A stretch of 64,000 nucleotides of DNA from Azolla caroliniana (GCA_043228905.1 JBHGNT010000001.1:36642001-36706000), one strand, 5' to 3'; positions 1 through 49,014 are shown, counted from the stretch's first letter. Translations and numbers: made by a program. Notes: generated by a model from the sequence alone, not told the origin.

Positions 1-1075
1 AATGGAACCAATGTAATTTCTAGTGTTTTGCTTGAGGTATAGAACAATTAATGCTTCAGATTTTTGTTTTTCTCCCTGGAATAATTGTAACAAGGTTTAA
101 CTATTTTTATAAGACACTGTTGAGAATCACCATTGTAAGCGTGATTTGGGTGCAGAAAATCATTTATTCTGTTTTGGACAGAATATTTTTGCTATCATCA
201 GCAATCCATAAAGCTTTTTGAGGATGGGGGCATTCTTCGTTTTATAAATTCAAGGTGTTTTTGTAAATTACATCATAGTGTATAATGGAATGATTTATTG
301 ATTGAACTGCAGATGCACATTGCAAAGTGCATGTATGCAGCTTTATTAACATTGTCACTTCCATTGAAGATATACTAATGGAATTATTCATGAAAATTTG
401 TTATTATAACATGGTGCCATCCTCTTGATCGATATGGACAAGTTCTAAAAGTTTATCAAGACGCAACGAATACTTTATAGCAAAATAGTATTATTTTTGT
501 ATAACCGCAAAGCATATGGCTATGCCATTAGTCTTGGTATTTGAGTGAAGGTAAAATTAAAGAATTTATCGTTATGGGTACATGATATTTTACTTGTTTC
601 CAAGGTGATCATGTTTCACATATGTTAAGGAAAATAATGTCACATTCTTTAGTTAAAACAACCTTGTAAGTTGTGAGGCTCAATATTTACAATCTAAAAT
701 ATTGGCCTATGGCCAAATGTATACAAGAAACGTGGTTATATTGTAGTTTGTGGAGAACTATCGTATATTAGGTAGAAGAGGTGATGCCCAATGGACTTGA
801 CTTGTGATGGGACAGGGACCCTTTAGAGTTTCCAACTTGTATAAAAGGGCAAAAGCTCTCATGTAAAAGGAGCCTTTGGAACTTCTTCTTTCTTTTTTTT
901 CAAAAGAACATATCCTTCCATTAGTTTTTAGAAAAGTCATAACAACAACATACAAAATATTTTTCCCAACTCATCTTTATAAGATGATGGTTTGAGGAAA
1001 GCAATCTATGTACTCCAAAGTAGAGAAAACTAGTCAACTAATCTGAAAGTTATTCTGTAGCCACATTCCAGCTAC

Positions 1076-1120
1076 TTGCAGTCCCATATATCTTAAATAA
1101 CTTGCATCTCCCAAGTCAAA
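1076..1120 (-). pseudogene. Starch branching enzyme (GH13) C-terminal-region fragment in the retro-mosaic
   Basis: Translates [15 protein letters not shown], resembling the plant SBE motif RRFDLGDAxYLRYxGxQ. It is fused directly after the GDI sequence LMGLFE in ORF 1034..1252. Confidence 0.7.
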
Positions 1121-1305
1121 CTCAAATAGACCCATGAGGGGAGACTTCAATGCTACTACATCTGTTGCAGGAACCTTGTGAATCTTCCCTTTATTAAAAA
1201 CATAGCTCCCATCAACGACTTTAAACATAGGAGGCTTGTCACTGTGGACCACAACTGTGTAAGATTGAGAGATGTTGACTCTCCACCATAATAATCATTC
1301 CTAAT
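1121..1305 (-). pseudogene. Rab GDP-dissociation inhibitor N-terminal processed fragment
   Basis: [18 protein letters not shown], then [35 protein letters not shown]. These are Rab-GDI motifs. No introns; one internal deletion and frameshift. Confidence 0.85.
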
Positions 1306-1439
1306 CATGATCATTGTCCTTGGCAAACCCTATGCAAGACACCAGAAAATCTGGCTGGTCTTAACATATGTAGAAAAAAAAAATTGCAATTTGGCTCTGT
1401 AATGAACTGTATGTCTCCTATAAAGAGAGATGGCAAAAA

Positions 1440-1940
1440 GAAATACTCATCAGCTGCAATAGCTGCACTTACATCCAGAGACAAATCCAAAACCTTTCCA
1501 GTGATAGCTGTATACATTGCCAAAACATCTTCCACAGTGGTCTCAAAATGGGTGGTTGCATCCTAGCTATTGGATATATAGCATTGATCCAATGAAGGTT
1601 CATTGACTGGTACAAATGTATCATAGGTATCGAAGAAAATTTCATCCACGGGTCCCAAAAGACTAATTCATGTCAGATTTCCTGCCTAGCTTTTTCACCT
1701 TGTTTGGAAGATATGATGGATCACCTACAACCTTCTTTGTCCTCGCCGTCTCTCCATCCGATGTGACACCACAAACCTTTCCTTCGTCATCAAATTCTAC
1801 CTTACACTCTGGTTTTGCAAGCATATATGTCCAATCATAAACTGCATTCAGTCGTGCAAAACCTTGTGCTAATTCACCAAGCTCATACAAAGGGTATATA
1901 TACAAGAGCCTCCTCGAAAACGAGCTAATGACTTAGAACA
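1440..1940 (-). pseudogene. Rab-GDI middle and C-terminal processed fragment
   Basis: SLARFRGGS/YIYPLYELGELAQGFARL...KPECKVEFDDEGKVCGVTSDGETA...PSYLPNKV, then LGRKSDM, then LLGPVDEIFFDTYD...DATTHFETTVEDVLAMYTAITGKVLDLSLDVSAA. Contains stops, frameshifts and two internal deletions; no introns. Confidence 0.9.
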
Positions 1941-1991
1941 TTAGCCACATTTCACTGTGACATTTGTAAACAATCTTTATATTACGTATAA

Positions 1992-2137
1992 CCAGTTGGA
2001 TGAGGCAAGCTGCCCTCAAGTTTGGGAATGTGATTTGCAGCATTCAAACAGAAAAGTTCATTTAACCAACCTTCAACAACATCACCTAAAGCATATCTGA
2101 TGGACTCTCCAAGCTCTACTTCTCTGAAAACTCTTCC
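1992..2137 (-). pseudogene. RNA cytidine acetyltransferase NAT10/Kre33 fragment
   Basis: Manual translation gives GRVFREVELGESIRYALGDVVEGWLNELFCLNAANHIPKLEGSLPHPT, matching the NAT10 motif ExIRYAxGDxxExWLNxLLCL. Confidence 0.75.
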
Positions 2138-2324
2138 TGGAATTCAAAAGAAGCCATCATATACTTGCAAAGGAAGTTTTCAGGGGTAGAACATCTTTCT
2201 CTGTAACATCCACATTTGTTTTCCCTAAAACTATACTAATTTGTTAGCACTTTCCTAATCCACAAGCTTAATGCTGGTTATAATAGCCTCCAGATATAAA
2301 CTGTGTTGATTTTATTTAGTAAAA

Positions 2325-2392
2325 GACTCCAGATATGCATCATCTCGGTATAAGGTTCACGCATGACCAATAAAATCAACTGTGTTGTCCTC
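2325..2392 (-). pseudogene. Short Rab-GDI fragment
   Basis: EDNTVDFIGHA*TLYRDDAYL matches GDI DNTVDFIGHALALHRDDxYL, which normally lies just before SLARF-GGSPYIYP. Confidence 0.75.
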
Positions 2393-2404
2393 TAATATCA
2401 ATTG

Positions 2405-3325
2405 TTGGTGTTGTGTCCATTAAGGGCCATAAAGCCATACATATCCTTGTCCATCAGGCTAAATGCAATTGTCTTGTCTCCAACTAAAGCCTGATCATGG
2501 CTTTGAGCATAAACAACACATTTTCTCAGCATGTCTTTTTTCTTAGCAATTCAATCCACTTGTCTGCAACTGCCTTATGCATCCTATAGTCGAAACCAAC
2601 ACCTCCATCTCCAACAGGGAGACTAAAGGTAGGCATTCAACTTACATCTTTTCCAACAGTAATGGCATTTGGCTATAAAGCATAGATCATTTCATTTGTC
2701 AACATGAGGTAATTCAAAGCATCTATATCTGTAGCCATTCCAAAACATTCATTATTATTCCCAGTAAAGGAAACATGTAGTCCATGATGAGTGTACATCA
2801 TTGATGTTACACCATCATAACGAAAACCATCAAATTTGTGCTCCTCAATCCACCATCTTGCATTGGACAACAAGAAGCATAGATCCTCCCATTCGCCATA
2901 ACTAAAAAGCCTAGAGTCCCACATGCAATGGTAACCACATGCAATGGTAACCACATGCACTGGAATGAAAATAATGGGAGTCTGTCCCATCAGTAATGGC
3001 ATTTGGCTATAAAGCATAGATCATTTCATTTGCCAACATGAGGTAATTCAAAGCATCTATATCTGTAGCCATTCCAAAACATTCATTATTATTCCCAGTA
3101 AAGGAAACATGTAGTCCATGATGAGTGTACATCATTGATGTTACACCATCATAATGAAAACCATCAAATTTGTGCTCCTCAATCCACCATCTTGCATTGG
3201 ACAACAAGAAGCATAGATCCTCCCATTCGCCATAACTAAAAAGCCTAGAGTCCCACATGCAATGGTAACCACATGCACTGGAATGAAAATAATGGGAGTC
3301 TGTCCCATCAAACATGTTTAATCCT
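2405..3325 (-). pseudogene. Starch branching enzyme (GH13) processed fragment with an internal tandem duplication
   Basis: [14 protein letters not shown]...WDSRLF...LLSNARWW...FDGF(R/H)[13 protein letters not shown]...[14 protein letters not shown]...[17 protein letters not shown]. Intronless, with stops and deletions. Confidence 0.9.
2657..3310. repeat. Near-identical ~318 bp tandem duplication; the left copy carries an extra 16 bp micro-duplication
   Basis: CAGTAATGGCATTTGGCTATAAAG starts at 2657 and again at 2991. CCACATGCAATGGTAA is doubled only in the left copy. Confidence 0.95.
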
Positions 3326-5877
3326 GGCAGACTAAATGAGCCGATAAGTAATGGCCCCTACACAAAGAAGTTGCATTGTGAAACACCATCCTTCTTCAAC
3401 CTGCACATAGTTAGCTACACCTAAAACATGCTACCAATTGTCTCCACTCATCCTCCCCAGAGAAAGAAAAAACCATTCCCCAAATTTGAAAAGAAAATAA
3501 AACATAATCTATCCTCCTTGGCCTTTGGACCTTTTATCCGCATTCTCTCCCCTTTGCATGAACTATGAGCCACTTTCCTTCATAGAGTTTTTCAATGCTA
3601 TTTAATCGAGGTATATGTGTTTTTATTGAGTAATTATATAATTAACTGAGACACTTTGCATGTTTCTATCTAGTAATTATCTATTTTATTGGAACAAACA
3701 TATTTCTTAATTAGATATGTGCTAATTTTAGTTTAAGTAAGACGCCTTTGAGGATTCCAAACTTCCATGGAGTGGAGAGGTAAGTGCTTTTATGTGTTGA
3801 AGTATGACATGGTCTTTAGCGCTGGGTAGCGACTACACACACTCCCTTAGTTAGCCCACAATGAGGGAGGGAGGCGACCCCTTGGGACTCGATAGTGACT
3901 TAAGAGTGTCAGAAGAGAGCTGGTTTTGATCTTATTAATCTTAGAAATCCTCTTTCACATGTAATTGATTATAGTGCCCAAACAAAGATCGTCCTCCAAA
4001 ATTTCATTATCCGTCAAAAAGATTGTATTCATCATGATTTCTTTCCAAAGAGTCATGGATGTGTTTATCTCTAAAACAAATTCTTATCCTCACAATAAAA
4101 AATCATCTTTCTCCATTACATTACATGTTGATTAATTGATGTAAATTAATCCTTACCAAAATGATTGCATACATTTGTAACCACTCTCGTGGATGCACTT
4201 AATCCAAAAATTAATCATGGTACCTTGTAGGATAGTGATCCCATTATGCATTAATAAAATTTCTTATATGGCTTTGACATAAATGTATCATCTGAGCACT
4301 TTCCATGTCATATGATTCATGGATATTCACTTCATCACCTTTGTATATTGGGCCAAAATGTATTAATGTTGATATGAAATATCACCGGTATCAACAGATG
4401 AATTTATTCTCATTAAGTAACTTTTTCAGGGAAGATTGATCAAATATATCTATACATATGTATTACTAAAGAATAGCAAATAGAAAAGTTTCAATCGTTC
4501 TAATGCTAGTAATTTTATTCTCAGTACGTACCTTTCTCATGAAAACCAAGTATGAAATGTATCAAAGACAAATACATTACATTGTCGCGATTATTCGCCA
4601 ATGGTGTATATAATTGCGTATTTGGCTTTTGACATAGCATACGTGCTTTTTTGTGCGTATATATCAACTAATTTCATTGTATTTCAACTCTAGCGGCAGT
4701 GAAGGAAGCGAACTGTTGAAGGTTTAATTTTAATTTAGCTAAGTTTACCTCATTTTGTGAGCTAGATGTAGTTGCAAGCCTGCTGCAACATCAATTTACT
4801 AGTAACCCTTGTGACAGTTTCTCAAAATGTTACACCAATCCCAATCAATCGTCCAAGATTGTTGAGCAAAAGTGAGTTGAGTTTTGTGGAATCGTAAGAA
4901 CATCCATACAGTCAATATCAGGATGCATATCATTGTGAGAAAAGTATAAACCTCATTGACACCTACCTGTGTTGAAATTTCAGTCTTCGCAGTAAAACAA
5001 ACTCCTTTACATCTGAATTGTCTTTGTGAAATAACGCTACTTCAATCAGATTCAGAATGCCTCCTTTAATTAAAGGTGATTTTTTTACATTTGGATACAT
5101 AGCCATTATTATAGTTGGATGTTCTACATGAGGTGGAATGAAATTTCCCCCCCATGGTTTTTTTTTTATATCAACTAGTGGAAATTTCACAAACTGTCTA
5201 AACCTTGACAATGTACAACATGTATATCAAATACTATTATGCAAAAGGTTAAGAAATTGGTTAAAGTTTGGAGAAGTTGATGATTAAAGAAAACCCCAAT
5301 ATAGAAATGTACCACATGGTCACTTTGTTGTTACCTAGATTTATGGTGACTATGGCCTTCATGTGAGAGTTCGGAAGGCTATGTGCGTTTATGTTCTCCT
5401 TCAACCATCATATGATTCTAATGTAAAAGCACACAAACATTGTGGAAAGAGAAGAGAAGTGATTTGTAGTAAACAAATGTTTACTAAGTTAGATTTCATC
5501 TGAAGTTCCAACTAACTCTTTAATTATGAAACCTTTTTTGAAGCTGTAGTAGGAATGTTGTGTTATGATCCAACATAGACCTTTATACAAACATAGCACA
5601 TGGAACTAACACGAAAAAATATTAAAGAAACTGGGACTCAAAACAAACAAAGTGGAATGGAAAAAGGCCTTCAAAAGGGGAAAGATTTTGTTCTTTATGT
5701 AAAACAATACTTGAGGAAATATATTACATTCACTGTCCATGTGCCAGGGACTTTTGCACTAGGTTCAGATTAAGTCAATCTTAGCAAATGTTGCAAAATA
5801 ACCCTTGCTATTCTTCATAACACTATCTTTTTCATGAAATGCCTTTAGCCCAATGTATTTAACTCATTAGAGTTAAT

Positions 5878-8307
5878 TTATGATTCCTTTTGCAGTCTCA
5901 AAGCTTCAACCTTGTTAGCTTCTTGTTGAAGACCAGCAGCTGCATAGATATTATACATAGAGACATATGCTGCGGCATCCTCTGAATCGAACTGAATTGC
6001 ATTTTCAAAAGCTAGTTTCCCTAGGTTTACATTTCCCCATTCTCTACAAGCATTTAACAGACTGCGCCATAACGTAACATCACCAGAATATGGCATTTCT
6101 TTAATCATCTCTACAACTTTGTCAAAGTGGCCTGCACGACCAAAAAGATCCACCATACAGGTATAATGCTCTAAATTTGGTATGATACCATACACTTTCA
6201 TCATGCTCTCAAAGTATGTTCGACCCTTATCTTCTAGACCTGAATGACAACATGTGTTAAGCACAACAGAGAATGTCGCTTGATCTGGAGATATACCTTC
6301 TTCTATCATTTTGTCAAAAACACTGAAAACAGCATCGTGCTTTCCGACCTGAGCATATCCAGCCATCAAGGCAGTCCAAGAAACGACATTCTTTTCCACA
6401 AGCTTATCAAATATTTCTTGTGCTTTGGTGATAACCCCACATTTTGCATACATATCTACGAGTGCATTTCCAATCAAAATATCATTTTCAACCAAACCCT
6501 CTCTCATGATCTCAGCATGTATTTCTTGGCCTTTGGTGGCCGCACCAATGGTGCCACATGCTTTCAAAACACAAACAAAGGTTACTGGACTTGGCAAAAT
6601 CCCATCAGCTTTCATTCTATTGAAGCATTCCAATGCTTTCTCACCATGCCCTTTTTCAGTATATCCAGCAATCAATACAGTCCATAACACTACATCTCGA
6701 ACTGGCAATTCATCAAACACTTCTCGCGCTTTTGCAAGGGTGCCACATTTTGCATACATATCAACCAATGCACTTCCAATCAAGATGCTCCTTTTCAGCA
6801 GCACCTCATTTATAATCATAGCATGTATTTTTTGTCCCTTCTCCAAAACTCCCAAGGTACCACATGCTTGCAAGATAAAATTATATGTAACCATATTTGG
6901 ACAAACCCCCTCGCATTTCATCTGCTCAAAACATCTCATTACCTCTTTACCATACCCATGTTGACCATACCCTGAGAGAAGCGCAGTCCATGAGATTACA
7001 TCCCGAAATAAAAGTTCATCAAACACCTGTTGTGCTTTCCCAAGAAGACCACATTTTGCATACATGTCAACAAGTGCATTCCCAACTAGAAGACTACTTC
7101 CTATTAACCCTCTTCTTGAAATCTGGGCATGTATTTCTTGACCTTTGTCTGCAGCTCCTATCTGGCTACACGCATTCAATACACAAATAAATGTGACCAG
7201 AGTTGGAGTTACACCATTCCTTTGCATATGTTCGAAACATTTCACTGCTTCTTTGCCATTTCCATATTGTGCATACCCTTTCATAAGGGAATTCCATGAC
7301 ACTACATCTTTGTTTGGAAGTTCATCAAACACTAACTGTGCTTTTGCAACATTTCCACATTTGGCATACATATCCACCAATGCATTACCAACTATAATAT
7401 TTCTCTTCAATAGACCTTGTTTCATGATCTCACTGTGTATTTCTTGGCCCTCATGTGATGCCCCTATTCTCCCACAAGCTTTCAATGCACAAATGAATGT
7501 GATTGCATCTGGAGAAACTCCCTCTAATTGCATCATCTCAAAACAATTCAGTGCTTCTTTACCATTTCCATACTCCACATATCCATCGATGAGTGCAGTC
7601 CATGAAATCACATCTCGTGTGTGAAGTGTATCGAATACTTCTTGTGCTTTTGACAGTGCACCACATTTGATATACATGTTGAGTAATGCGTTTCCAATAA
7701 AAGCATCTTTCTCAATACGAAACCCCTTTTTCACAATGCTCGCATGAATTCTGCATCCTTTTTCAAGGTTCTTTTGCTTGGCACAAATCTTCAATGAAGT
7801 GATAATAGAATTTATATTACTCTTATCAGATTCAAATCTCTGAAGCTTATTACTATTGTTGTTGTTGCGATCATGATTCTGATCCATTCCCAATCTTCTA
7901 TACGGCAATTGACTGATAGCTTTAGATAGTAATTCTTGGTCTTCTGACTGATATTCAGGACTGGTCTGCCATGGATATCAGTGATTGATAGATATATATA
8001 ATGTATGTATGTATGTATGCATGCATGTATGCATGTGCCTATATATGCAGTTATGCATGTATGTATATACATATGTATATATGTATGTGTCCTCGTGTAC
8101 GTAGAGCATCAGAAAAGAAGGTAACGAGATGCGAATGGCATACCTGATGGCGCATTTAGATTTTTTTATTCCAGGATCGGGAGAATTCTGAGCTTTTCTA
8201 TGGCAGCTCCAAGTTCGAGAAATCGTATCTGTGGGCAAATCGCGAGGAATATGCCCTGCTGTGCTTGTGGGAGCCCAGTCAGATCCATGAAGAAGTGCTG
8301 CCTCCAT
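5878..8307 (-). CDS. PLS-class PPR protein ending in E domains, no DYW (exons 8307-8144 and 7960-5878)
   Basis: Regular L-S-P triplets (NALVDMYAKCG, VSWTALI.GY, TFVCVLKAC), then P2-L2-S2-E1-E2. A GT at 8143 and an AG ending at 7961 join the MEAALLHG... leader in frame. Confidence 0.9.
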
Positions 8308-8453: not shown

Positions 8454-9755
8454 ATGCATATATTACATGAATATATCAAGGGAAGCATATGTATATCATT
8501 ATTCATATACATGTATATATTGGAAATAGAATAAATCAAAAGTGTAACACCTAACGAAGAGCACCCCCCCCCCCCCAATCCAAGTGCCTTAAACTTGGAC
8601 TGTGGACACTTGTTGAATGAAAAACGATGAACAATTTGGTCTCTCTCTTTCTCATAACTTTGTGTGAAAATAATATGGAAATGATGCTACAATTTACTGG
8701 TGTCATGGCTACATGCATAGTGGGACATACAAAATCCCTAATATGCAAGACAAACAGTCCACTGAGGAAAAAAAATCATGACTTGCCCTGAGAAAATAAA
8801 TTTGTCGACATCTAACTCCATGCCAACAATCAAATGCTAAAGCATTGGACTTATCACAATCCCCAATATCTCAAAAAGAGGAAAACGGTCTCCATCTTTG
8901 ATCTTGAGTTGAGCTATGTAAATTCTACTAATAGCCCCTATCTTGGTGTCAAATAAAAGTTTGAGAAAACATGCGAAATGTGAGAAATGTAATCCAAAAC
9001 CTAATGAGCCAACAAACATTGTACAAAACAATGAGTACTATCTTCCACTTGACCAATAGCAAAAAAGTAATTGTGTATTACTAGTTAAAGTCTCTTTAGA
9101 GATAATCCCCAAAGCTAAACCCTCGATCAATATGCTCCAAATGAAGACCTTCGTTAGAAATGACAATTCAAAACGGCAACTATGTTCCAAGATTTGCCAT
9201 TGTCTATAATTAAGAGTTACATACCTTCCATTCTTGTTTAGCCTTAGATAATAGCCATCGAAGAGACTCAACAGAGCAACGATACAAGTGATTAATAGTC
9301 ACTCGTAAATGCCAACGAACCCATGGTTGTTCTTTCGGTTCCTATCATGTATTACTTGAAAAGGTTATGTGTTATGTCATCCATGTCAAAATGAACTAAA
9401 GAGTTAAAAGGTTTTTCTGTATTTATTACAATACCCCTGAGTTTCCAAAAATAATCGTTATACCTTCATTGCATATCACTGCGCTAAGAGAAGAAGAAGA
9501 GGAAGGGAACGAACCTCACTCAAAAGGCAGCAAAACAGACATGCATGTTGTAAAGAAAGATATTCCTTTTGAGGTAATGTTTAAATGAGTGATGCTCCAA
9601 TACTTAAGCAATATATGAAATGAAGAGCTCTTGGTTGATTTGCAATACGAGATTTGAATAGGATCCTTGTGCCCTTATGGAATTAAGCAAAGAAGCCTTT
9701 GTGACATGGAAAGTGGGGCGTTTTTGAGATAATTTTTACATTACTAATAGTCAAT

Positions 9756-11492
9756 ATGATTGTGAAATGTACTGCATTTGATGAGGTTTCAATTCAAGAT
9801 ATAACCTCATGGAATTCACAAATAGTAGGATATGTACACCATGGACATGGGAAGGAAGCACTAAAGAGTTTTGATATCATGCAACACGAGGGTGTTGCTC
9901 CAAATTCAATTACCTATGCTTGTATCTTGAAGGCTTGTGGAAGCATCAAACTACTCAGAAAGAGACCAGAAATGCATGCTAGGATCATAAAAGAGGGTTT
10001 TCTCAAGAAGAATGTGTTTGTTGGCAATGCTTTGGTGGGCATGTATGTCAAGTGTGGTGAACTCAACAAAGCACAAGAAGTATTTGATGTGCTAACTATC
10101 TGGGATGTAGCCTCGTGGAATACGCTTATTGGAGGATATGCCCAACACGGATATGGTGATGAAGCTCTCGATTATTTCGAACAAATGAAAGCTGGAGGGA
10201 TTTCTCCCAATGCAATTACCTTTGTTTGCATCTTGAAGGCTTGTGGTATCATAGGAGACATTGCAAAAGGTCAAGAAATACATGTAGAGATCGTTAACAA
10301 GGGTTTGTTAGGAGAAGATACCATGGTTGGAAATGCATTGATAGACATGTATGCAAAATGTGGAGTGATTCTGAAAGCTCAAGAAGTATTTGATAAGGTT
10401 CCTTTTCGGGATACAGTGTCATGGAATGCCCTAATTGCAGGATATGTCCAGCATGGGCATATGAAGAAAGCGATTGAGTGTTCAGAAGAGATGGAAAAAA
10501 ATGGATTTTCTCCAAATGTGGTAACATTTGGTTGCCTTTTGAAGATATGTGGCACCATAGGAGCAATTAAGAAGGGCCAAGAAATACATGGTGAAATCAT
10601 AAAAGAAGGTTTACTTGGAAAAGGCATCTTGCTTTGCAATGCTCTAGTGGAAATGTATGCGAAATGTGGTGCACTTTCTGAAGCAAGAGATGTTTTCGAG
10701 CAACTTTCTGTGAAGGATGTAGTCTTAAGGACTGCGTTAATTTCTGGATATGCCCAACATGGGCATGGTGAAGAACCTTTGGCTCTTTATGAAAAGATGC
10801 AAGATGATGGTGTTGCTCCAACTCCTCTTACCTTTGTTTGCATGTTGAAGGCTTGTGGCAACATTGGTACATGTAATAAGGGTCAAGAAATACATGCAAG
10901 GATCGTCACGGAGGGTATGTTGCAAGGAGATATCAGAATTGGCACTGCGTTAGTGGATATGTATGCCAAATGTGGAGAACTTGCTAAAGCACAATACATA
11001 TTTAATGAGCTTGCAGTTCGAGATGTAGTATCATGGAGTGCATTAATTGCAGGGTTTGCTCAACTTGGAAAGGATAGCAAGGCATTATTCAATGCATTAA
11101 ACCAAATGTTAGAAGAAGGTATTGAGCCGAATTCAGCATCTTTTTCTAGCATGCTTAAGATGTGTTGTCACTTTGGTTTACTTGATAAGGGCAAATTGGT
11201 ATTTGAGATAATGATAAAATGGTATGCTATAATTCCTACTGTAGATCATTACACTTGCCTAGTTGACCTTTTTTGTCGTGCCGGACTCTTTGAAAAGGCG
11301 GTGGGCGTAACTGAGAGGATGCCATTTAATGGTGACCTTATAATGTGGCATGCTTTGCTAAGTGCTTGTAGAACATGGGAAAATGTGACAGCTGCAAGAT
11401 TAGCTTTCAAAAATGCAACCCTACTCGATGGAACAGATGTTGCAACTTATATTTCCATGAGTAATATTTATGCAGAGTTCAAGGAACCCTGA
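9756..11492 (+). CDS. PLS-class PPR protein, E-type, ends mid-E2; N-terminus uncertain or truncated
   Basis: 578 aa ORF of P-L-S triplets followed by S2/E1/E2 (HYTCLVDLFCRAG, WHALLSAC, YISMSNIYA). It starts within an S motif. Confidence 0.85.
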   Translation: MIVKCTAFDEVSIQDITSWNSQIVGYVHHGHGKEALKSFDIMQHEGVAPNSITYACILKACGSIKLLRKRPEMHARIIKEGFLKKNVFVGNALVGMYVKCGELNKAQEVFDVLTIWDVASWNTLIGGYAQHGYGDEALDYFEQMKAGGISPNAITFVCILKACGIIGDIAKGQEIHVEIVNKGLLGEDTMVGNALIDMYAKCGVILKAQEVFDKVPFRDTVSWNALIAGYVQHGHMKKAIECSEEMEKNGFSPNVVTFGCLLKICGTIGAIKKGQEIHGEIIKEGLLGKGILLCNALVEMYAKCGALSEARDVFEQLSVKDVVLRTALISGYAQHGHGEEPLALYEKMQDDGVAPTPLTFVCMLKACGNIGTCNKGQEIHARIVTEGMLQGDIRIGTALVDMYAKCGELAKAQYIFNELAVRDVVSWSALIAGFAQLGKDSKALFNALNQMLEEGIEPNSASFSSMLKMCCHFGLLDKGKLVFEIMIKWYAIIPTVDHYTCLVDLFCRAGLFEKAVGVTERMPFNGDLIMWHALLSACRTWENVTAARLAFKNATLLDGTDVATYISMSNIYAEFKEP

Positions 11493-19967: not shown

Positions 19968-22288
19968 ATGATGGAAAAGAAAGGAATTGCTATGGAATTG
20001 GAATTGCTATGGAAACCTCACAATCCAAGCCATAAGGTATGCAAAACTTCATCACTTTCTGTCAAATGATACAATTTGTGTATTCTATTTATTTATTAAA
20101 TTTCAAAGTTCAGTGTATTCATTAACATGATTCTTCAATATTCAAGCAGAAAAGTGCTCATAAGCTTCTTTGGAGTCACAGTTGCGTCAATCCTTATTGG
20201 GTCCAGGAGGCTCTAAAACCGAAAAGATCAAAAAAAGGACGTGTCAGTTATATGAGAAAGAGATTAATCCATTTAAAGGCAAAAAAAACAGAGGACAAAA
20301 TGGAGGAAAAATTGTTTATTTTCAGGGAAAGCAATGTGCAGAATGATGATGATGAGAGTTTGGGCGGTCCTGATTCTCTTATCGGTTTACTCAAATCTTG
20401 TGCGAGAAAAAAGGATATTCATAAAGGAACCCTAATCCATGCTGATATTGCCAAAAGAGGGATTCTTAAAAGGGATGTTTTAGTCGGCAGCACTTTAGTA
20501 TATATGTACGCCAAATGTGGGAAACTTGCGAAAGCTCAAGGAGTATTCGATGAGCTCCCAATTAGAGATATAGTATCATGGAACATATTGATACTTGGAT
20601 ATGTTGAGCATGGATATAGTGAAGAAGCACTGAATGCTTTTCAACATATGCAACGGCATGATGGCCTTTCTCCTAATGCAATAACATTTGTTTGCATCTT
20701 GAAAGCATGTGGCCACCTAAGAGCAATGGAGAAAGGGCAAGATATACATGTCGTGCTTATGAAAGATGGTTTGCTTAAAAATAATATATTGGTTGGGAAT
20801 GCATTGGTAGATATGTATGTGAAATGTGGTTCACTTGGAAAGGCAAAAGAAGTGTTTGATGATCTTCCATTCCGAGATGTAGTGTCCTGGACTATGCTAA
20901 TTGCAGGATATACCCAACATGGATACGGTGAGGTAGCATTGAAATGTTATGAATGTATGAAACAAGAGGGTGTTGAACCAGATGAAATTACATTTCTTTA
21001 TGTGTTGAAGGCTTGTGGTAGCGTAGGAGCTGTTGATAAAGGCCAAGAAGCCCATGGTGAGATCATAAGCAAAGGGATATTGAACAAAGATGTCTTTCTT
21101 GGAAATGCATTGGTTGATATGTATACAAAATGTGGCGATCTTGCAAGAGCACGACATGTGTTTAATAATCTTGAAGTTAAGAATGTAATATCCTGGACTA
21201 CATTAATCACAGGGTATGCTGGATGTGGCCTTTGCTATAGAGCAATACACTGTTTTCAAGACATGCAACGTAGTGGTCTTCAGCCAGATGAATTTACCTT
21301 AGTTTGCATTTTGAAGGTTTGTGGCAAGATAGGAGCAATTGACCGGGGCCAGGAAATACATGCTGAGATTGTGAAACAAGGGCTCTTGAGGAGATCAAGC
21401 ATTTCTCTTGGAAATGCATTGGTTGAAATGTACGCTAAATGCAATGCCCTTGAAAATGCGCATCTAGTCTTCAATGAGCTTTCTAGTCGCAATTTATTGA
21501 CGTGGAATGCACTAATTTCAGGATACGTTGAACATGGTTATGGTGAGAAAGCAATGCATTTTTATGAGCTTATGCGAAATGAGGGTCTGATTCCAAATGC
21601 AATGACTTTTATTTGTATCTTGAAGGCATGTGGAAGTATGGGTGCAACTTCCGTAGGCCAACAAATACACGAAGAGATGATAAATATGAGATTATTAGAG
21701 ATAGATAATCTAGTAGTTGGAACTGCCTTGATAGATATGTACGTCAAGTGTGGTTTTGTTGCAAAAGCACAAGAAGTATTTGATGAACTCCCAATTAAGG
21801 ACACAGTCACTTGGACCATGTTACTTTCGGGATATGCTCAGCTTGGAAAGCATGATATTGTATTCAATTCATTAGACAAAATGATGAGAGAGGAAGGTAT
21901 ACGTCCAGATTCAATGACATTCTCCATTGTGCTAAACACATGTTGTCATTCAGGATTACTGCATGAAGGCCAACTATACTTTAAGGCTATGAACAAATGT
22001 TATGGTGTTAGTCCAACTATAGAGCATCATAGTTGCATGATTGACCTTTTTGGACGAGCCGGATGCTTTGACGAAGCGTTAGGAATGATGAAAGAGATGC
22101 CTTTTCATGCAGACCTGACATTGTGGCATATTTTGTTGGGTGCTAGTAAAAAATGGGGAGATGAAAAAATTGGAAGGTTTGCTTTTGAGAATGCAATCCA
22201 GATGAATAAAAACGATGATGTGGCATATGCATGTATGAGCTACATTTACGCAGGTGGACATGCAAAAGCAGGAATAGAAATTCAATGA
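19968..22288 (+). CDS. PLS-class PPR protein, E-type, no DYW (exons 19968-20036 and 20150-22288)
   Basis: 678 aa ORF of PLS triplets plus E1 and partial E2. A phase-0 GT-AG intron joins the exon MMEKKGIAMELELLWKPHNPSHK in frame. Confidence 0.9.
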
Positions 22289-32161: not shown

Positions 32162-34864
32162 ATGGGCTTGTTAGGGAATGATTGCTTCAGAGATCCCTTC
32201 CTGCGGTGCCATAAACAGCGCATCGAGGTAAGCATATATTTGTTAAGCTTTTGAACATTACATTGCGTTTTTCTTTTTGCAATAAAGTTTCTTTCTGTTC
32301 TTTCTTTTTGTTTTCAATGGAAGACTTTCCCCGAAGAGTTAACATTTACTCAATATGATTTGTATAATATAAGAAGATTGAGAATATTTGTAAATAGCCT
32401 TGCGAGATCATCCCAAGCAAAAGATAAAGATTTCTATGTCCAGAAATACAAGAAAAAGAAGACCCAAGGGGTCTATTCCAAGGAAAAGAAACCAATCGAG
32501 GGAGAATGTTCAATTTCTATCAATGGAAATGATGAAGTTGTCGAAGAAATTAATAATCTTAGGCTTGGTGATCTTTTGGCTTTATTGAAGGCTTGTGCAA
32601 AGAGAAAAGACCTTCAGAAAGGTATCAAATTACATACCCAAATCCTCAAAAGGGGTTTATTAGGAAAGAGTGTTTATGTGGGAAGCATAATAATCAACAT
32701 GTATGCAAAATGTGGTGCACTTGAAAAAGCTCAAGAAGCATTTGATGAGTTACCCATCCGAAATGTGGTCTCTTGGACTGCCCTTATCACAGGATACGCC
32801 CAAAATGGCCATGGTGAAGAAGCATTGAAATGCTATGAAAAGATGCAACAAGATGGGTTTTCTCCTGATGCAGTAACTATCGTGTCTATCCTTAAAGCAT
32901 GTGGTATGATTGGAGAAGCCAAGAAAGGTGAAGAAATACATACAGAGATCAGGAGACAAGGTTTGCTAGATAACATATTTGTTTTCAATGCATTAATAGA
33001 TATGTATGCCAAATGTGGTAAATTGGCAAAAGCACAAGAAGTTTTTGATGAGTTTCATGTTCGAGATGTTGTCTCATGGAATGCATTGATTGGAGGATAT
33101 GCATACCATGGGCATGGTGAGGAAGCACTGACTTTGTTTGAGAGAATGAAAAATAATGGCGTCTCTCCAGATGAAGTCACCTTCGTTTGCATCTTAAATG
33201 CATGTGGTACAATAGGAGCTATCAAGAAGGGCCAACAAATACATAGAGAAATTATTGAAGAGGGTCTGCTCAAAAGAAATATATTAGTTGGAAACGCATT
33301 AGTGGATATGTATGCAAAATGTGGGGCTATTTCAAAAGCAAAAGAAGTGTTTGATGAGCTTCCCTCACAGAATGTGGTCTCCTGGACTACGCTAATTACT
33401 GGATATGTGCAGAATGGAAACACACAAGAAGCATTAAATTGCTTCCAAGAGATGTTTAGCAAGGGCATCTCTCCTAATGTAATTACATTCATTTCCATCT
33501 TAAGAGCATGTGGCAACATAAAAGCTCTAGAGAAAGGTCAAGAGATACATACTGAGATTGTGAAAATAGGTTTGCTCGGGAAAAGTAAGTTCTCTGTTGA
33601 AAAGTCACTGGTGGATATGTATGCGAAATGTGGCGCACTTGTAGAAGCACAAGAAGTATTTGATAAGCTTCCAGGTCAAGATACAAGTACTTGGAATTCA
33701 TTGATTTCAGGATATTCTCAATATGGGCATAGTGAGAGAGCATTGAACTGCTTTAAACGTATGCAATATAACGGTGTTCGTCCTGATGGAGTGACTTTTG
33801 TTTGCATCTTGAATGCTTGTGGCAACATCAGGGCTGAAGCCCAAGGCAATGCCTTGCATACGCAGATTGTGAATGAGAGATGGTTGGAGAAAGATATCAT
33901 GGTTGGTAATGCATTGGTAGATATGTATGTAAAATTTCACGCACCAACTAAGGCGCAAGCTGTATTTGATGTTATTCTGGTCCGGAATGTGGTCACTTGG
34001 ACTTCATTAATTGCAGGATATGCCCAATATGGATATGGTGAGGAGGCATTGAAATGCTATGATCTGATGCAAGAGCAGGGTATATCTCCAAATACATACA
34101 CATTTGCTTGCATACTGAAAGCATGTGGCAGCATAGGAGCAGGTTCAAAAGCTCACCATGTACATGCTGCAATCATCCATGACAAGCTCCCAGAAAAAGA
34201 TATTAGAGTTGGCACTGCATTGGTGGATATGTATGCGAAGTGTGGTGCATTAACAAAAGCTCAGGAAGTCTTCAATGAACTTCCCTTTCAAGACTCGGTC
34301 TCATGGAACTCTTTAATGAGAGGATATGCCCAGATTGGTCACAACGATATTGTCTTTGATTCATTCAAGAAAATGGTAGAACAAGGCATAAAGCCAGATC
34401 AAGTCACCTTTTCCATTGTTTTAAATGCATGTTGTCATTCAGGTCTTGTAGACAAAGGCCACATGTACTTTGACATGATGAAGATGAGTTATGGTGTAAT
34501 GCCAACTTTAGATCACTACACATGCATGATTGGTCTATATGGCCGGGCTGGGCAATTCGATAAGGCTATGGCCATGATAGAGGAGATGCCATTCCCAGGT
34601 GATTTTAGCATGTGGTGTACACTGCTGGGTGCGTGTCATAAATGGGGTAATGTACAGCTTGGAAGATTAGTCTTTGAGCATGCAATACAGTTTGATGAAA
34701 AGAACGCAGTGCCGTATATTTGTATGAATAATATTTACACTGCTGCTGGCATGCTAGAGGATGCTGAGAAAATTGAAGCCATGAGATTGGAGAAAGATGC
34801 AAACAACAATACGGGAGACTTGTGGCGGTTTTCGAATATTGAAGGCAGTAAAATATTCTTTTGA
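32162..34864 (+). CDS. PLS-class PPR protein, E-type, no DYW (exons 32162-32227 and 32324-34864)
   Basis: 834 aa ORF with six L-S-P sets plus L2-S2-E1-E2. The upstream exon MGLLGNDCFRDPFLRCHKQRIE splices in phase 0. Confidence 0.9.
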
Positions 34865-42461: not shown

Positions 42462-42889
42462 TAACAATTGGCAACAGTTCGGTTTGAACTGAACCGAACC
42501 GCAAAACTGCGGCTTAATGGTCTAAGCGGTTCGGTTTAGGTTTTTTAAACGGTTTGGTTCGGTTTCAACCGTTAGAAACCGCGGTTTAAACGGTTTAACG
42601 GGTTTTCTTTTTTTTTTCGTAAAAATTAAAATTTTATAAAAATGTTTTTAAACAATCTTTTCATTTTTAGACCTTATTCTCACATTTTCGGAACGTCTTT
42701 AAAATTTTTAAAATTTAAAATAATGAAATATTTTAAATTTTAAAAATTTTAAATTTGACCTAAGTTGAAACCGAAACCGCGGTTTTAACGTTTGAAATTT
42801 TTTTAATGGTTTCGTGGTTCAGTTCAAGTTTCAAAAATTTTAAACCGTTCGGTTTTGACCCTCTCAAACCGAACCGTTGCCAATTGTTA
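42462..42889. mobile_element. hAT-type MITE upstream of NEK
   Basis: TIRs TAACAATTGGCAAC...GTTGCCAATTGTTA. 8 bp TSD ACCACATG/GCCACATG. AACCG subterminal repeats and an AT-rich core. Confidence 0.9.
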
Positions 42890-43908: not shown

Positions 43909-44417
43909 TAACAATCGACAACGGTTTGGTTTGAACCGAACCAAACTGCGAAACAACGGCTTAACGGTTTAAACGGTTCGGCTCGGTTTGGTTTCAACAG
44001 TCAAAAACCGCGGTTTAAACGGTTAAACGGTTTTTTGTTTTTTATTTTTTTATTTTTTTTAAAAAAAATTAAAAATTAAAAAACAAATTCTAAAAAATTA
44101 AAAAAATTGTTTTTAAACAATCTTTTCATTTTTACACCTTATTCTCACATTTTAGGAACATCTTAAAAATCTTAAAAATTCTAAATAATGAAATATTATA
44201 AATTTTTAAAAAATTAAAAATTAAAAATTTGACTTATGTTGAAAACCGAAACCGAACCACGAAACCGCGGTTTTTACGGTTTAATGGTTTAACGGTTTGA
44301 AAAAGGTTTAATGGGTCGTTTTAATGGTTTCGCGGTTTGGTTTGGTTCAAGTTTCAAAAAAATTAAACGGTTCAGTTTGGACCCTCTCAAACCGAACCGA
44401 ACCGTTGCCGATTGTTA
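43909..44417. mobile_element. Second copy of the same hAT-type MITE family
   Basis: TIRs TAACAATCGACAACGG...CCGTTGCCGATTGTTA. 8 bp TSD ATTGGAGC/ATCAGAGC. Shares the core CAATCTTTTCATTTTTA.ACCTTATTCTCACATTTT with the first copy. Confidence 0.9.
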
Positions 44418-47509: not shown

Positions 47510-48910
47510 TCATACTTTGTTCATGGGCAACGTTTGATGGCGAACACCATAGAGTTCAAGTAGTTGGTCGTCAGCAAAATTGAAAGCTCTTTGCATTTGT
47601 TTAAAGCATGACATGTCATCATTGTAATCCCCCACACTCTTACTACATGGTTTACAACCAACAAAGTGAGAAATAAAAGGCAATGTATGATGAAGGTCCT
47701 TTTGAGACTTCTCCATCTTGACGTTCTCATTATTGTATGCGAGGTTGGGCCATGTGCCATGCAAATGATAAGAATTCTCCATATACACCTTCTCACCCCA
47801 CTTATCCTTCTCGGTGATGTGAAAGTTTACCAATGTTGATTGGTTGTTGTGAGGATCAAACTCATGTGGTTGTCCAATGAGCTTCTCGAATGATCCATTG
47901 GGCATTGCCCAAGCATCCAAGAGATCCAAAGACCATTGTTGATTCCTTATCAAGAAGCTACCTATGTCGAGACCTACCGACTTATGGGCCCCGTGGAGCA
48001 TGTTTTCCCACTCTCCTTGCATGACCATGTTGTGGTGTTCATACCTGTGCATAGGGAGCTCAAAGTCCATGCGCGTGAACACGACGTCATTGTTCATCCA
48101 CCAGAACCACTCGACCTCGGGGTGAGCCACCATCATGTTCCTCAACAACGAGAGCTTCATATAATGAGGCGACACACGGGGAGCATCGCCATCGCCATCA
48201 CCGCCATCATCATCGGCACTCACATCATCAATGTTGCCATCCACCACGACACGTGGCGAGTCATGGAAGATCCCAATGCCATGGAGTCTACAGTAGTCGA
48301 GCTTATTGTTGAGCGAGCGAAGGAGGAAGTGGTGCCCGAGGGGGGTTTCACACTGGGAAGGGTCAAAGCCGGTGGTGACAAGCATGATGTTAGTATGACT
48401 ATGAGCACCACTACTATTATTATCACTACTACTAGCCTTGGATGATTGGGCTGTACGAGCATAGGACTCAACCACGCGAGTTCGAATCTGAGTATTCCAA
48501 TCAACGTATGGTTTGCTTCTTGGCCCTGATCTCTGAGAAGCTTTGGCAGGGTTCACACCCATGTTCTCCTCAAGCTTGGCACGATCAACCACCACCTCAT
48601 CATCATCATCATCAGTATCCATGGGATTTGTGTGCGGTTTGTGCTTCTCTGCTACGAGTGCTTGTGCAAGTGATCTGCTGGGGATGATGAGTTGTTTTCT
48701 GTGGTGATCGCCCCTTCCTCCAAAGTGTTGCTTTATCTCTTCCAAGTCCTTGGCTGGGGTCCCAAATCTACCTGCCCCTAGCGTTCCTCTCAACACAAGT
48801 AGGGTTAGGAACCCACACAGCAGAGTTAGCTTGATGTTGTTTAGAGACCTTTGGATTTGCTTGACCCTCGCATGAGAGATCAAATTTGATAAATAATTAC
48901 TACAAGCCAT
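47510..48910 (-). CDS. GT34 xyloglucan xylosyltransferase (XXT)-like protein, single exon, divergent active site
   Basis: NNIKLTLLCGFLTLLVLRGTLGAG TM anchor, NKLDYCRLHGI, HPEVEWFWWM, ISHFVGCKPC, QMQRAFNFADDQ. First ATG at 48910. Confidence 0.9.
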   Translation of the reverse strand: MACSNYLSNLISHARVKQIQRSLNNIKLTLLCGFLTLLVLRGTLGAGRFGTPAKDLEEIKQHFGGRGDHHRKQLIIPSRSLAQALVAEKHKPHTNPMDTDDDDDEVVVDRAKLEENMGVNPAKASQRSGPRSKPYVDWNTQIRTRVVESYARTAQSSKASSSDNNSSGAHSHTNIMLVTTGFDPSQCETPLGHHFLLRSLNNKLDYCRLHGIGIFHDSPRVVVDGNIDDVSADDDGGDGDGDAPRVSPHYMKLSLLRNMMVAHPEVEWFWWMNNDVVFTRMDFELPMHRYEHHNMVMQGEWENMLHGAHKSVGLDIGSFLIRNQQWSLDLLDAWAMPNGSFEKLIGQPHEFDPHNNQSTLVNFHITEKDKWGEKVYMENSYHLHGTWPNLAYNNENVKMEKSQKDLHHTLPFISHFVGCKPCSKSVGDYNDDMSCFKQMQRAFNFADDQLLELYGVRHQTLPMNKV

Positions 48911-49014
48911 ACTTGCCCTCTCCCCCCCCCCCCCCCTTTTTTTTAGAGGGATTTCGGCTCCTGTTGTTGAGTTTGGAGACAATACTAATTGTGGCTAGGA
49001 TCAGGGGGCGATTG

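Follow-up and report, generated by a model that had tools for sequence, protein, structure and literature searches.

A nested mosaic of SBE, GDI and NAT10 fragments in the 3′ UTR of an L1 LINE of Azolla caroliniana

Gene capture by plant transposable elements has been described for LTR elements and DNA transposons. A plant L1 whose 3′ UTR holds nested fragments of several genes did not turn up in the open-access literature (repeat databases may list one), and the main text of a 2026 review contains none of the whole words LINE, SINE or non-LTR (PMC13317346). According to the accessible parts of two reports, the Drosophila element TART-A (nxf2) and further telomeric non-LTR elements (piwi, aub, and CG12520) hold amplified host-gene fragments in their UTRs (PMC7785250, PMC13534243). 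A likewise UTR-held cargo was found in the Azolla caroliniana DNA analysed here, a stretch of 64,000 nt (the window, G000:C1:36642001-36706000), and the identity to the host gene is similar, 76–95% in the TART-type elements and 91–97% in the Azolla L1 (PMC7785250, PMC13534243). The TART-type fragments are described as 140–235 bp long, derived mostly from piRNA genes and accompanied by small-RNA evidence of host targeting (PMC7785250, PMC13534243), whereas the Azolla cargo comprises about 1.9 kb of permuted, re-spliced, and nested sequence from three housekeeping genes, and its carrier is a plant L1 with dispersed copies. The mosaic is a real and new variant of retrotransposon gene capture, located in the 3′ UTR of a plant L1.

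Other known systems share single traits with it. Maize Bs1 is also a plant retrotransposon with segments of three host genes, but according to the available text it is an LTR element whose cargo is a translated chimeric ORF (PMC13317346), while the Azolla cargo lies in the 3′ UTR of an L1. The tripartite WEIRD/Mg-SINE/MGL elements of Magnaporthe (PMC2104539) and the mammalian LINE-1/mRNA chimeras (PMC13174262) likewise consist of co-oriented RNA pieces fused to a LINE within one target-site duplication (TSD); in the parts of these papers available, the foreign RNA lies 5′ of the LINE with one or two joints. The Azolla cargo, in contrast, is placed between ORF2 and the element's own conserved tail, has been inherited by many copies and was exchanged between lineages. 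L1 3′ transduction also brings host sequence to the 3′ end of an L1 transcript, but it is described as adding the contiguous flank downstream of the element's own end (PMC13317346), whereas the Azolla cargo lies upstream of a tail common to sister UTRs and comes, nested, from three genes. The truncated Azolla copies resemble the Sadhu retroposons of Arabidopsis, non-coding plant sequences that look LINE-mobilised; Sadhu is non-autonomous in the accessible account (PMC2848041), while the longest Azolla copies are full LINEs. In the Azolla L1 family, traces of capture, re-splicing, and the exchange of UTRs remain in copies that can be dated, so that three questions become testable: is it RNA or DNA that L1 captures, does capture act locally, and do fragments borne by LINEs silence the parent genes? 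The family is also an annotation hazard, since L1 copies mimic GDI, SBE, and NAT10 genes and the NAT10 matches in the assembly are only LINE-borne.

The window copy and its L1 carrier

The mosaic in the window belongs to a feature on the minus strand that reaches from 872 to 3533 and ends in a LINE tail, a poly(A) tract, and a TSD. The L1 copy itself, a 5′-truncated and poly(A)-tailed L1 LINE, spans 3520 to 885 and is flanked by the 13-nt TSD. Six-frame reading and alignment to the host genes confirmed which pieces lie on the minus strand and how they follow one another; they are given here from 5′ to 3′ on that strand. The 5′ TSD copy (13 nt, 3521–3533, 12 of 13 nt identical to 872–884) is followed by the 5′ truncation point and the last part of the tandem array of ~330-bp monomers of the L1 3′ UTR (3360–3520, 84–98% identical to PPR-bodied sister UTRs), upstream of which longer copies have further monomers and ORF2. 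A piece of ~33 nt (3325–3359), present in full length only in the mosaic copies among the fetched loci, lies between the L1 UTR and SBE. The 5′ cargo of SBE (SBE2-type, 2397–3324) represents 26–670 of the parent mRNA, matches SBE2 homologues and is 91–95% identical to the parent gene at G000:C13:20036114-20039234. Next comes Rab-GDI piece 1 (2328–2396, parent mRNA 438–506, inside one exon; 93% identity to the C13 GDI gene vs. 83% to the C6 paralogue), and then the NAT10 insert: the 3′ half of an intron with its acceptor (2137–2327, 93–94% identical to the intron of the fern NAT10 genomic contig L108), a 127-nt exon that continues, its intron gone, with the initial ~14 nt of the exon downstream (1996–2136, identified by PF05127 positions 147–176 and the L108 alignment), and the start of the following intron (1941–1995, 85–88% identical to the L108 intron, a proxy parent from a related fern). 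GDI piece 2 (1303–1940, mRNA ~548–1414, 93–96% identical to the parent at G000:C13:20655670-20657835) runs through the stop codon and the 3′ UTR and is followed, in circular permutation, by the N-terminal exons as GDI piece 3 (1121–1302, mRNA ~20–318). The 3′ cargo of SBE (1075–1120, mRNA 827–872, 44 of 46 nt identical to the parent mRNA) spans one exon join and leads into the conserved L1 3′ terminal tail (901–1074, the 3′ end common to all 30 fetched loci), the poly(A) tract (885–900), and the 3′ TSD copy (872–884, matching 3521–3533).

An earlier note on the window had placed co-oriented SBE, GDI, and NAT10 pieces on the minus strand; all are present, with boundaries within ~10–20 nt of those it gave. 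The nesting it described is also real, as SBE breaks at position 670 of the parent mRNA and resumes at 827, and GDI breaks at 506 and resumes at ~548. A piece it left unassigned (~2327–2137) is the 3′ half of the NAT10 intron. A 334-bp tandem duplication within the SBE piece (window 2647–3280) is private to the window insertion. Its length is close to that of the monomers, and other copy-specific repeats were also seen, namely a tandem duplication of ~167 bp in the C4 copy (L046:6630-6961) and 280-bp repeats of tail plus flank at the C941 end (L150).

The carrier is almost certainly an L1 LINE, with the mosaic as its 3′ UTR cargo. The longest copies run upstream through the ~330-bp tandem monomers into the LINE ORF2, and a full-length copy on C13 (G000:C13:20874937-20884508; 9,573 bp, 14–15-nt TSD, 3′ UTR of 3,772 nt) contains ORF1, the endonuclease and the mosaic cargo. 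The PF03372 endonuclease of the C13 copy (28.0 bits) and the PF00078 reverse transcriptase (RT) and PF13966 zf-RVT domains of the long C4 copy (97.2 and 36.2 bits) scored over the Pfam cut-off, while the 461-aa ORF1 frame gave weak matches, both below cut-off, to PF14111 (DUF4283, E 0.002) and PF00098 (zf-CCHC, E 0.003). We take the element to belong to the L1 clade on the basis of its domain layout and its poly(A)/TSD pattern. A PF00078 search of the genome gave short Ty3-type matches. No intact mosaic-bearing L1 was found among the five long loci read, three of which have the mosaic: the C13 copy has stops and frameshifts, and the C4 copy has a 913-aa open stretch with a broken 5′ part. Since the longest copies are full LINEs, the shorter ones are L1s in truncated form rather than a SINE-like family in their own right. 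A SINE derived from tRNA, 5S or 7SL RNA was rejected, as no small-RNA-derived head was recognised and the head continues into ORF2, and so was a reading as a PPR-derived SINE with a promoter head, as the monomers lead into the LINE ORF2. Rfam searches of L034, L035, and L044 returned no relevant match (four weak matches, all far below the gathering score).

Window 900–3600 has at least 71 matches (the best 40 of 407 candidates were scored). The cargo was found in 21 distinct loci, of which those on C941, C173, and C1261 each have the flanks of a further locus and were taken together with it, so that at least 18 insertion sites are represented; identity at the 18 sites is 92–100%. The 3′ end is the same in all 30 fetched loci and precedes an A-rich tract, and the 5′ ends are variable. 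Directly at the ends, 10 of 16 testable sites have TSDs of 13–22 nt (one mismatch allowed; the other two of the 18 sites have no 5′ end in the fetched DNA), compared with a maximum of 11 nt in 240 mismatched flank pairs. A 22-nt tail motif occurs in 236 exact copies in the genome, which mark the wider L1 family, and in none in the reversed control. The L1 carrier, the marks of target-primed insertion, and the amplification to at least 18 sites are thus established.

The earlier note had invoked mRNA capture by an LTR-retroelement RT, which is refuted for the carrier. Capture by an LTR retrotransposon could call on the precedent of Bs1, with three host-gene segments according to the accessible text (PMC13317346), and on the many Ty3-type RTs in the genome, but it is highly improbable, as is capture by a DNA transposon (Pack-MULE, Helitron). 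We found neither an LTR nor a terminal inverted repeat flanking the element, and the poly(A) tract, the 13–22-nt TSDs, the variable 5′ truncation, and the upstream L1 ORFs all contradict such carriers; in the case of Pack-MULE or Helitron, so do the poly(A) end and 14 complete introns that were removed instead of kept. The chance that the mosaic is an assembly chimera is negligible. Three unplaced contigs do duplicate loci, flanks included, and an independent contig of the window locus is without the 334-bp duplication, which alone may be an assembly artefact, but the mosaic recurs at 18 separate insertion sites with 92–100% identity, and that independent contig, a metagenome contig from another sample (L111, 3,104 bp), contains the whole cargo plus ~800 bp of the same flank at 98%. 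Moreover, DNA-run contigs (three organism codes, A, B, and D) cover 28–30 of 30 bins, and some of them bridge the GDI/SBE and NAT10/GDI joints.

Splicing and joints within the cargo

The parent genes are intron-rich, as the earlier note had stated, and the SBE and GDI pieces are spliced. Thirteen of their 14 parent exon junctions are normal joins with no intron remnant, while at the 14th, in GDI piece 2, a real donor is joined to an AG inside the next exon, which served as a cryptic acceptor. As NAT10 adds one clean exon join, 14 complete introns were removed in all. The SBE 5′ cargo lost five introns and has one non-splice deletion of ~55 nt; GDI piece 2 shows five normal exon joins and one 96-nt GT-AG exon-internal splice; GDI piece 3 has two exon joins and a 111-nt non-splice deletion; and in NAT10 a cryptic GT-AG splice of 69 nt consumed the AG upstream of the real donor. 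Two of the four exon-internal deletions (GDI 96 nt, NAT10 69 nt) thus have GT..AG ends, for which P is about 0.0009 at a background of 1.2% (97 of 7,956 positions) in a count to which neither the alternative acceptor nor a short rearrangement in the UTR contributes. In total, cryptic GT-AG splicing accounts for three internal gaps.

The NAT10 insert behaves differently from SBE and GDI. Compared with L108, a metagenome contig of a related fern that stands in for the host gene, it consists of the 3′ intron half, the 127-nt exon, the site of a removed intron, an exon stub, and the next intron start. Because intron flanks it on both sides, its template was unspliced pre-mRNA or DNA. The claim that all pieces are intronless therefore holds for SBE and GDI and fails for NAT10, the only piece with retained intron; in the same way, mature co-packaged mRNAs suit the spliced SBE and GDI pieces but not NAT10. 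The host NAT10 gene was not found in assembly G000, where repeated searches returned only LINE-borne fragments or nothing. Low-depth DNA-run contigs show the joint at NAT10, which makes an assembly gap likely. In another metagenome contig (L110:1-1771) an intron-containing NAT10 gene runs through the shared exon into the 3′ half of the mosaic and a poly(A) tract; this contig reflects either faulty assembly at that exon or a genuine recombination between the gene and the L1.

There are five joints in the cargo (SBE>GDI, GDI>NAT10, NAT10>GDI, GDI 3′ UTR>GDI exon 2, and GDI>SBE), and two or three further ones connect it to the L1 UTR. GT-AG is absent from all of them, the five inter-gene or permutation joints and those to the L1 UTR. 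At the four joints with an in-genome parent on at least one side, 0–5 nt of identity was found; the 5 nt at NAT10>GDI are rare (null P for at least 5 nt, 0.7%), and microhomology is otherwise not clearly above chance. In the available text of the study concerned, the RT of R2 adds non-templated bases and jumps by microhomology, and short or no identity at the joints fits such jumps of a non-LTR RT (PMC4117753). Thus, the template switching proposed in the earlier note fits joints that are not splice sites, and where it asked whether switch points have microhomology, only the NAT10>GDI joint has an unusual amount. SBE took the place of ~800 nt of the PPR body, GDI that of 156 nt of SBE, and NAT10 that of ~40 nt of GDI. 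Within GDI the order is circularly permuted, from 438 to 1414 and then from 20 to 318; a circular RNA would produce this order, and so would a jump into a 3′ UTR from near the 5′ end of a GDI RNA.

The spliced SBE and GDI pieces, the intron-flanked NAT10 insert, the three GT-AG gaps, and the three joins of the mosaic to sister L1 UTR sequence are direct observations. The reading that we prefer, with a probability of roughly 0.6, is a stepwise capture of host RNA by L1 template switching, followed by re-splicing. The L1 RT would have switched onto host RNA and back, probably in separate rounds: a PPR-bodied UTR may first have lost ~800 nt to SBE, then ~156 nt of SBE would have been replaced by the permuted GDI, and afterwards ~40 nt of GDI by NAT10 pre-mRNA, with later trimming of the cargo that was likely due to splicing of the L1 transcript. 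As each product would have kept both ORFs and the tail, it would have stayed mobile and served as the next template.

The cargo has acquired fixed stops, and the longest ORF starting with Met is 102–133 aa in the five copies compared. Judging from these sequences, the cargo is most likely non-coding and decaying, a passive UTR sequence. No RNA set is among those listed as containing the element. Four presumed-RNA runs showed mostly the order of the parent genes; one contig of run X17 (367 nt) bridges 965–1338 and may be DNA.

Parent genes and the age of the captured pieces

The SBE parent (C13:20.036-20.040 Mb) and the GDI parent (C13:20.653-20.658 Mb) are on the same strand with 620 kb between them, and 220 kb separate the GDI parent from the one full-length copy that was found. 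Simple post hoc chance estimates that ignore gene clustering are 0.2% for the SBE–GDI distance and 1.5% for the distance between the copy and GDI. This proximity favours nearby nascent RNA or DNA over a random RNA pool. The C6 GDI paralogue was rejected as donor, since it was worse in every piece compared (80–96% vs. 93–97% for the C13 GDI). In Ceratopteris, the genes named NAT10, GDI, and SBE2 are on chromosomes 19, 5, and 17, which gives no support for linkage.

The same L1 could also have received its cargo as DNA, if breaks in the C13 source L1 had been filled from nearby genes and the introns spliced out in the next round. The closeness of the full-length L1 to two parents on the same strand, 620 kb apart, would suit this, as would the NAT10 insert, which keeps exactly two partial introns and misses only the complete one, and the cryptic splices show that the UTR is spliced. 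Intron loss does not discriminate between RNA and DNA as the source, since the next round of retrotransposition would remove every intron that was complete. Nevertheless, entry as DNA appears unlikely. All six SBE and GDI piece ends fall within exon or UTR sequence, even though both genes consist mostly of introns; the cargo is in sense orientation throughout; the unspliced spans would be ~3.6 kb for SBE and ~4.2 kb for GDI; and the GDI permutation requires an extra step. In addition, the C13 copy itself is fully spliced and not clearly basal (support 18–75 in the cargo tree).

Capture in separate rounds would leave cargos of different age. Differences fixed in all six long copies affect 29 of 631 SBE and 18 of 719 GDI coding sites (p = 0.038), and after polarisation by four fern or other outgroup proteins per gene, the element-side amino-acid changes numbered 13 of 631 in the outer SBE and 5 of 719 in the inner GDI (p = 0.033). 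A comparison of the majority sequence with the parent alone was not significant (36/586 vs. 35/825, p = 0.11). The SBE cargo looks older than the GDI cargo by this measure, which has modest power, being based on 18 substitutions with p of about 0.03. The equal divergence of pieces expected from a common origin was thus not seen, and the ages of the pieces appear to differ in part.

The single cDNA synthesis proposed in the earlier note would instead require one L1 reverse-transcription event with 7–8 switches among SBE mRNA, GDI mRNA, and a mis-spliced NAT10 pre-mRNA, followed by amplification. It agrees with the cargo tree, which has one long stem and a shallow crown with no basal copy placed, and with the lack, in G000, of an intermediate that has SBE alone or SBE plus GDI; the parent genes are the only matches of those SBE and GDI stretches that the mosaic lacks (1 of 1 and 2 of 2 candidates). 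The lack of a surviving intermediate counts against stepwise capture. Double switches in one LINE insertion have also been reported (PMC2104539, in the part available). However, the outer cargo is more diverged than the inner one, three rare cryptic splices would have to pre-exist in the captured RNAs, and the published single-event chimeras compared, as far as their accounts were accessible, have two switches and no double in-register return to an earlier template. Together with the separate swaps of UTR modules described below, these points make a single synthesis improbable.

Exchange of UTR modules among sister L1s

Sister L1s with 80–94% identical ORF2 ends carry other UTR bodies (at least 45 matches; of 145 candidates, the best 40 were scored). 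The PPR genes of the window itself supplied a PPR profile that matched five of five sister bodies and neither mosaic copy; the reversed or complemented controls gave no match, nor did the monomer head plus mosaic element. The profile also matched 7 of 12 further UTR regions, and Pfam PPR was detected in 5 of 9 sister UTR regions, where a three-frame scan found no host-gene family besides PPR. The sampled sister UTRs thus hold decayed PPR fragments.

In a tree of ORF2 ends (24 rows), the C13 mosaic copy is placed next to the 'P31' lineage with PPR bodies (support 88/82); the mosaic has the monomer end and the tail of that lineage. Three other mosaic copies group with the 'U1' lineage (support 100/97). 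UTRs of the U1 type meet the mosaic at three different points, with overlaps of 13–14, 13, and 0 nt. Two ORF2 lineages and three different junctions indicate that exchange of UTRs in separate events is habitual in this L1 family.

Further UTR forms were seen on the side. The sister UTRs L231, L232, L233, L236, L244, and L247 are 2–4 kb long with other tandem repeats and many PPR fragments, and they share modules in mixed order. One insertion site exists in two forms, with ORF1 joined directly to the monomers on C173 (L152/L198) and with ORF2 plus another insertion on C20 (L047/L237). In related organisms (runs X12 and X17), a high-depth UTR form is without the SBE 3′ piece (window 1029–1131), another skips 126 nt at GDI/NAT10 (window 2225–2352), and a different body is joined to the monomer end (window 3366).

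A wider and quite tentative idea ('Pack-LINE') is that the fern L1 UTR might be a reloadable cassette that captures nascent transcripts near the source or insertion site, splices them and trades them between lineages, PPR RNA being the usual cargo. If so, such elements may drive the expansion of intronless PPR genes and supply small RNAs against PPR, SBE, and GDI genes. The window contains four long uninterrupted PLS-type PPR frames with 306-bp repeats, at 5881–7977 (−), 9705–11489 (+), 20126–22285 (+), and 32255–34861 (+), which lie among ordinary genes and might be retrocopies that these LINEs produced. A short repeat rich in palindromes, probably MITE-like, was noticed twice, at 42550–42880 and 43950–44400. 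An uninterrupted frame of 494 codons with an acidic insertion (47513–48994, minus strand) presumably resembles a xyloglucan glycosyltransferase. Just left of the window, a 573-aa frame (L151:8227-9945), which we take to resemble a MULE transposase, has MORN-like repeat exons nearby.
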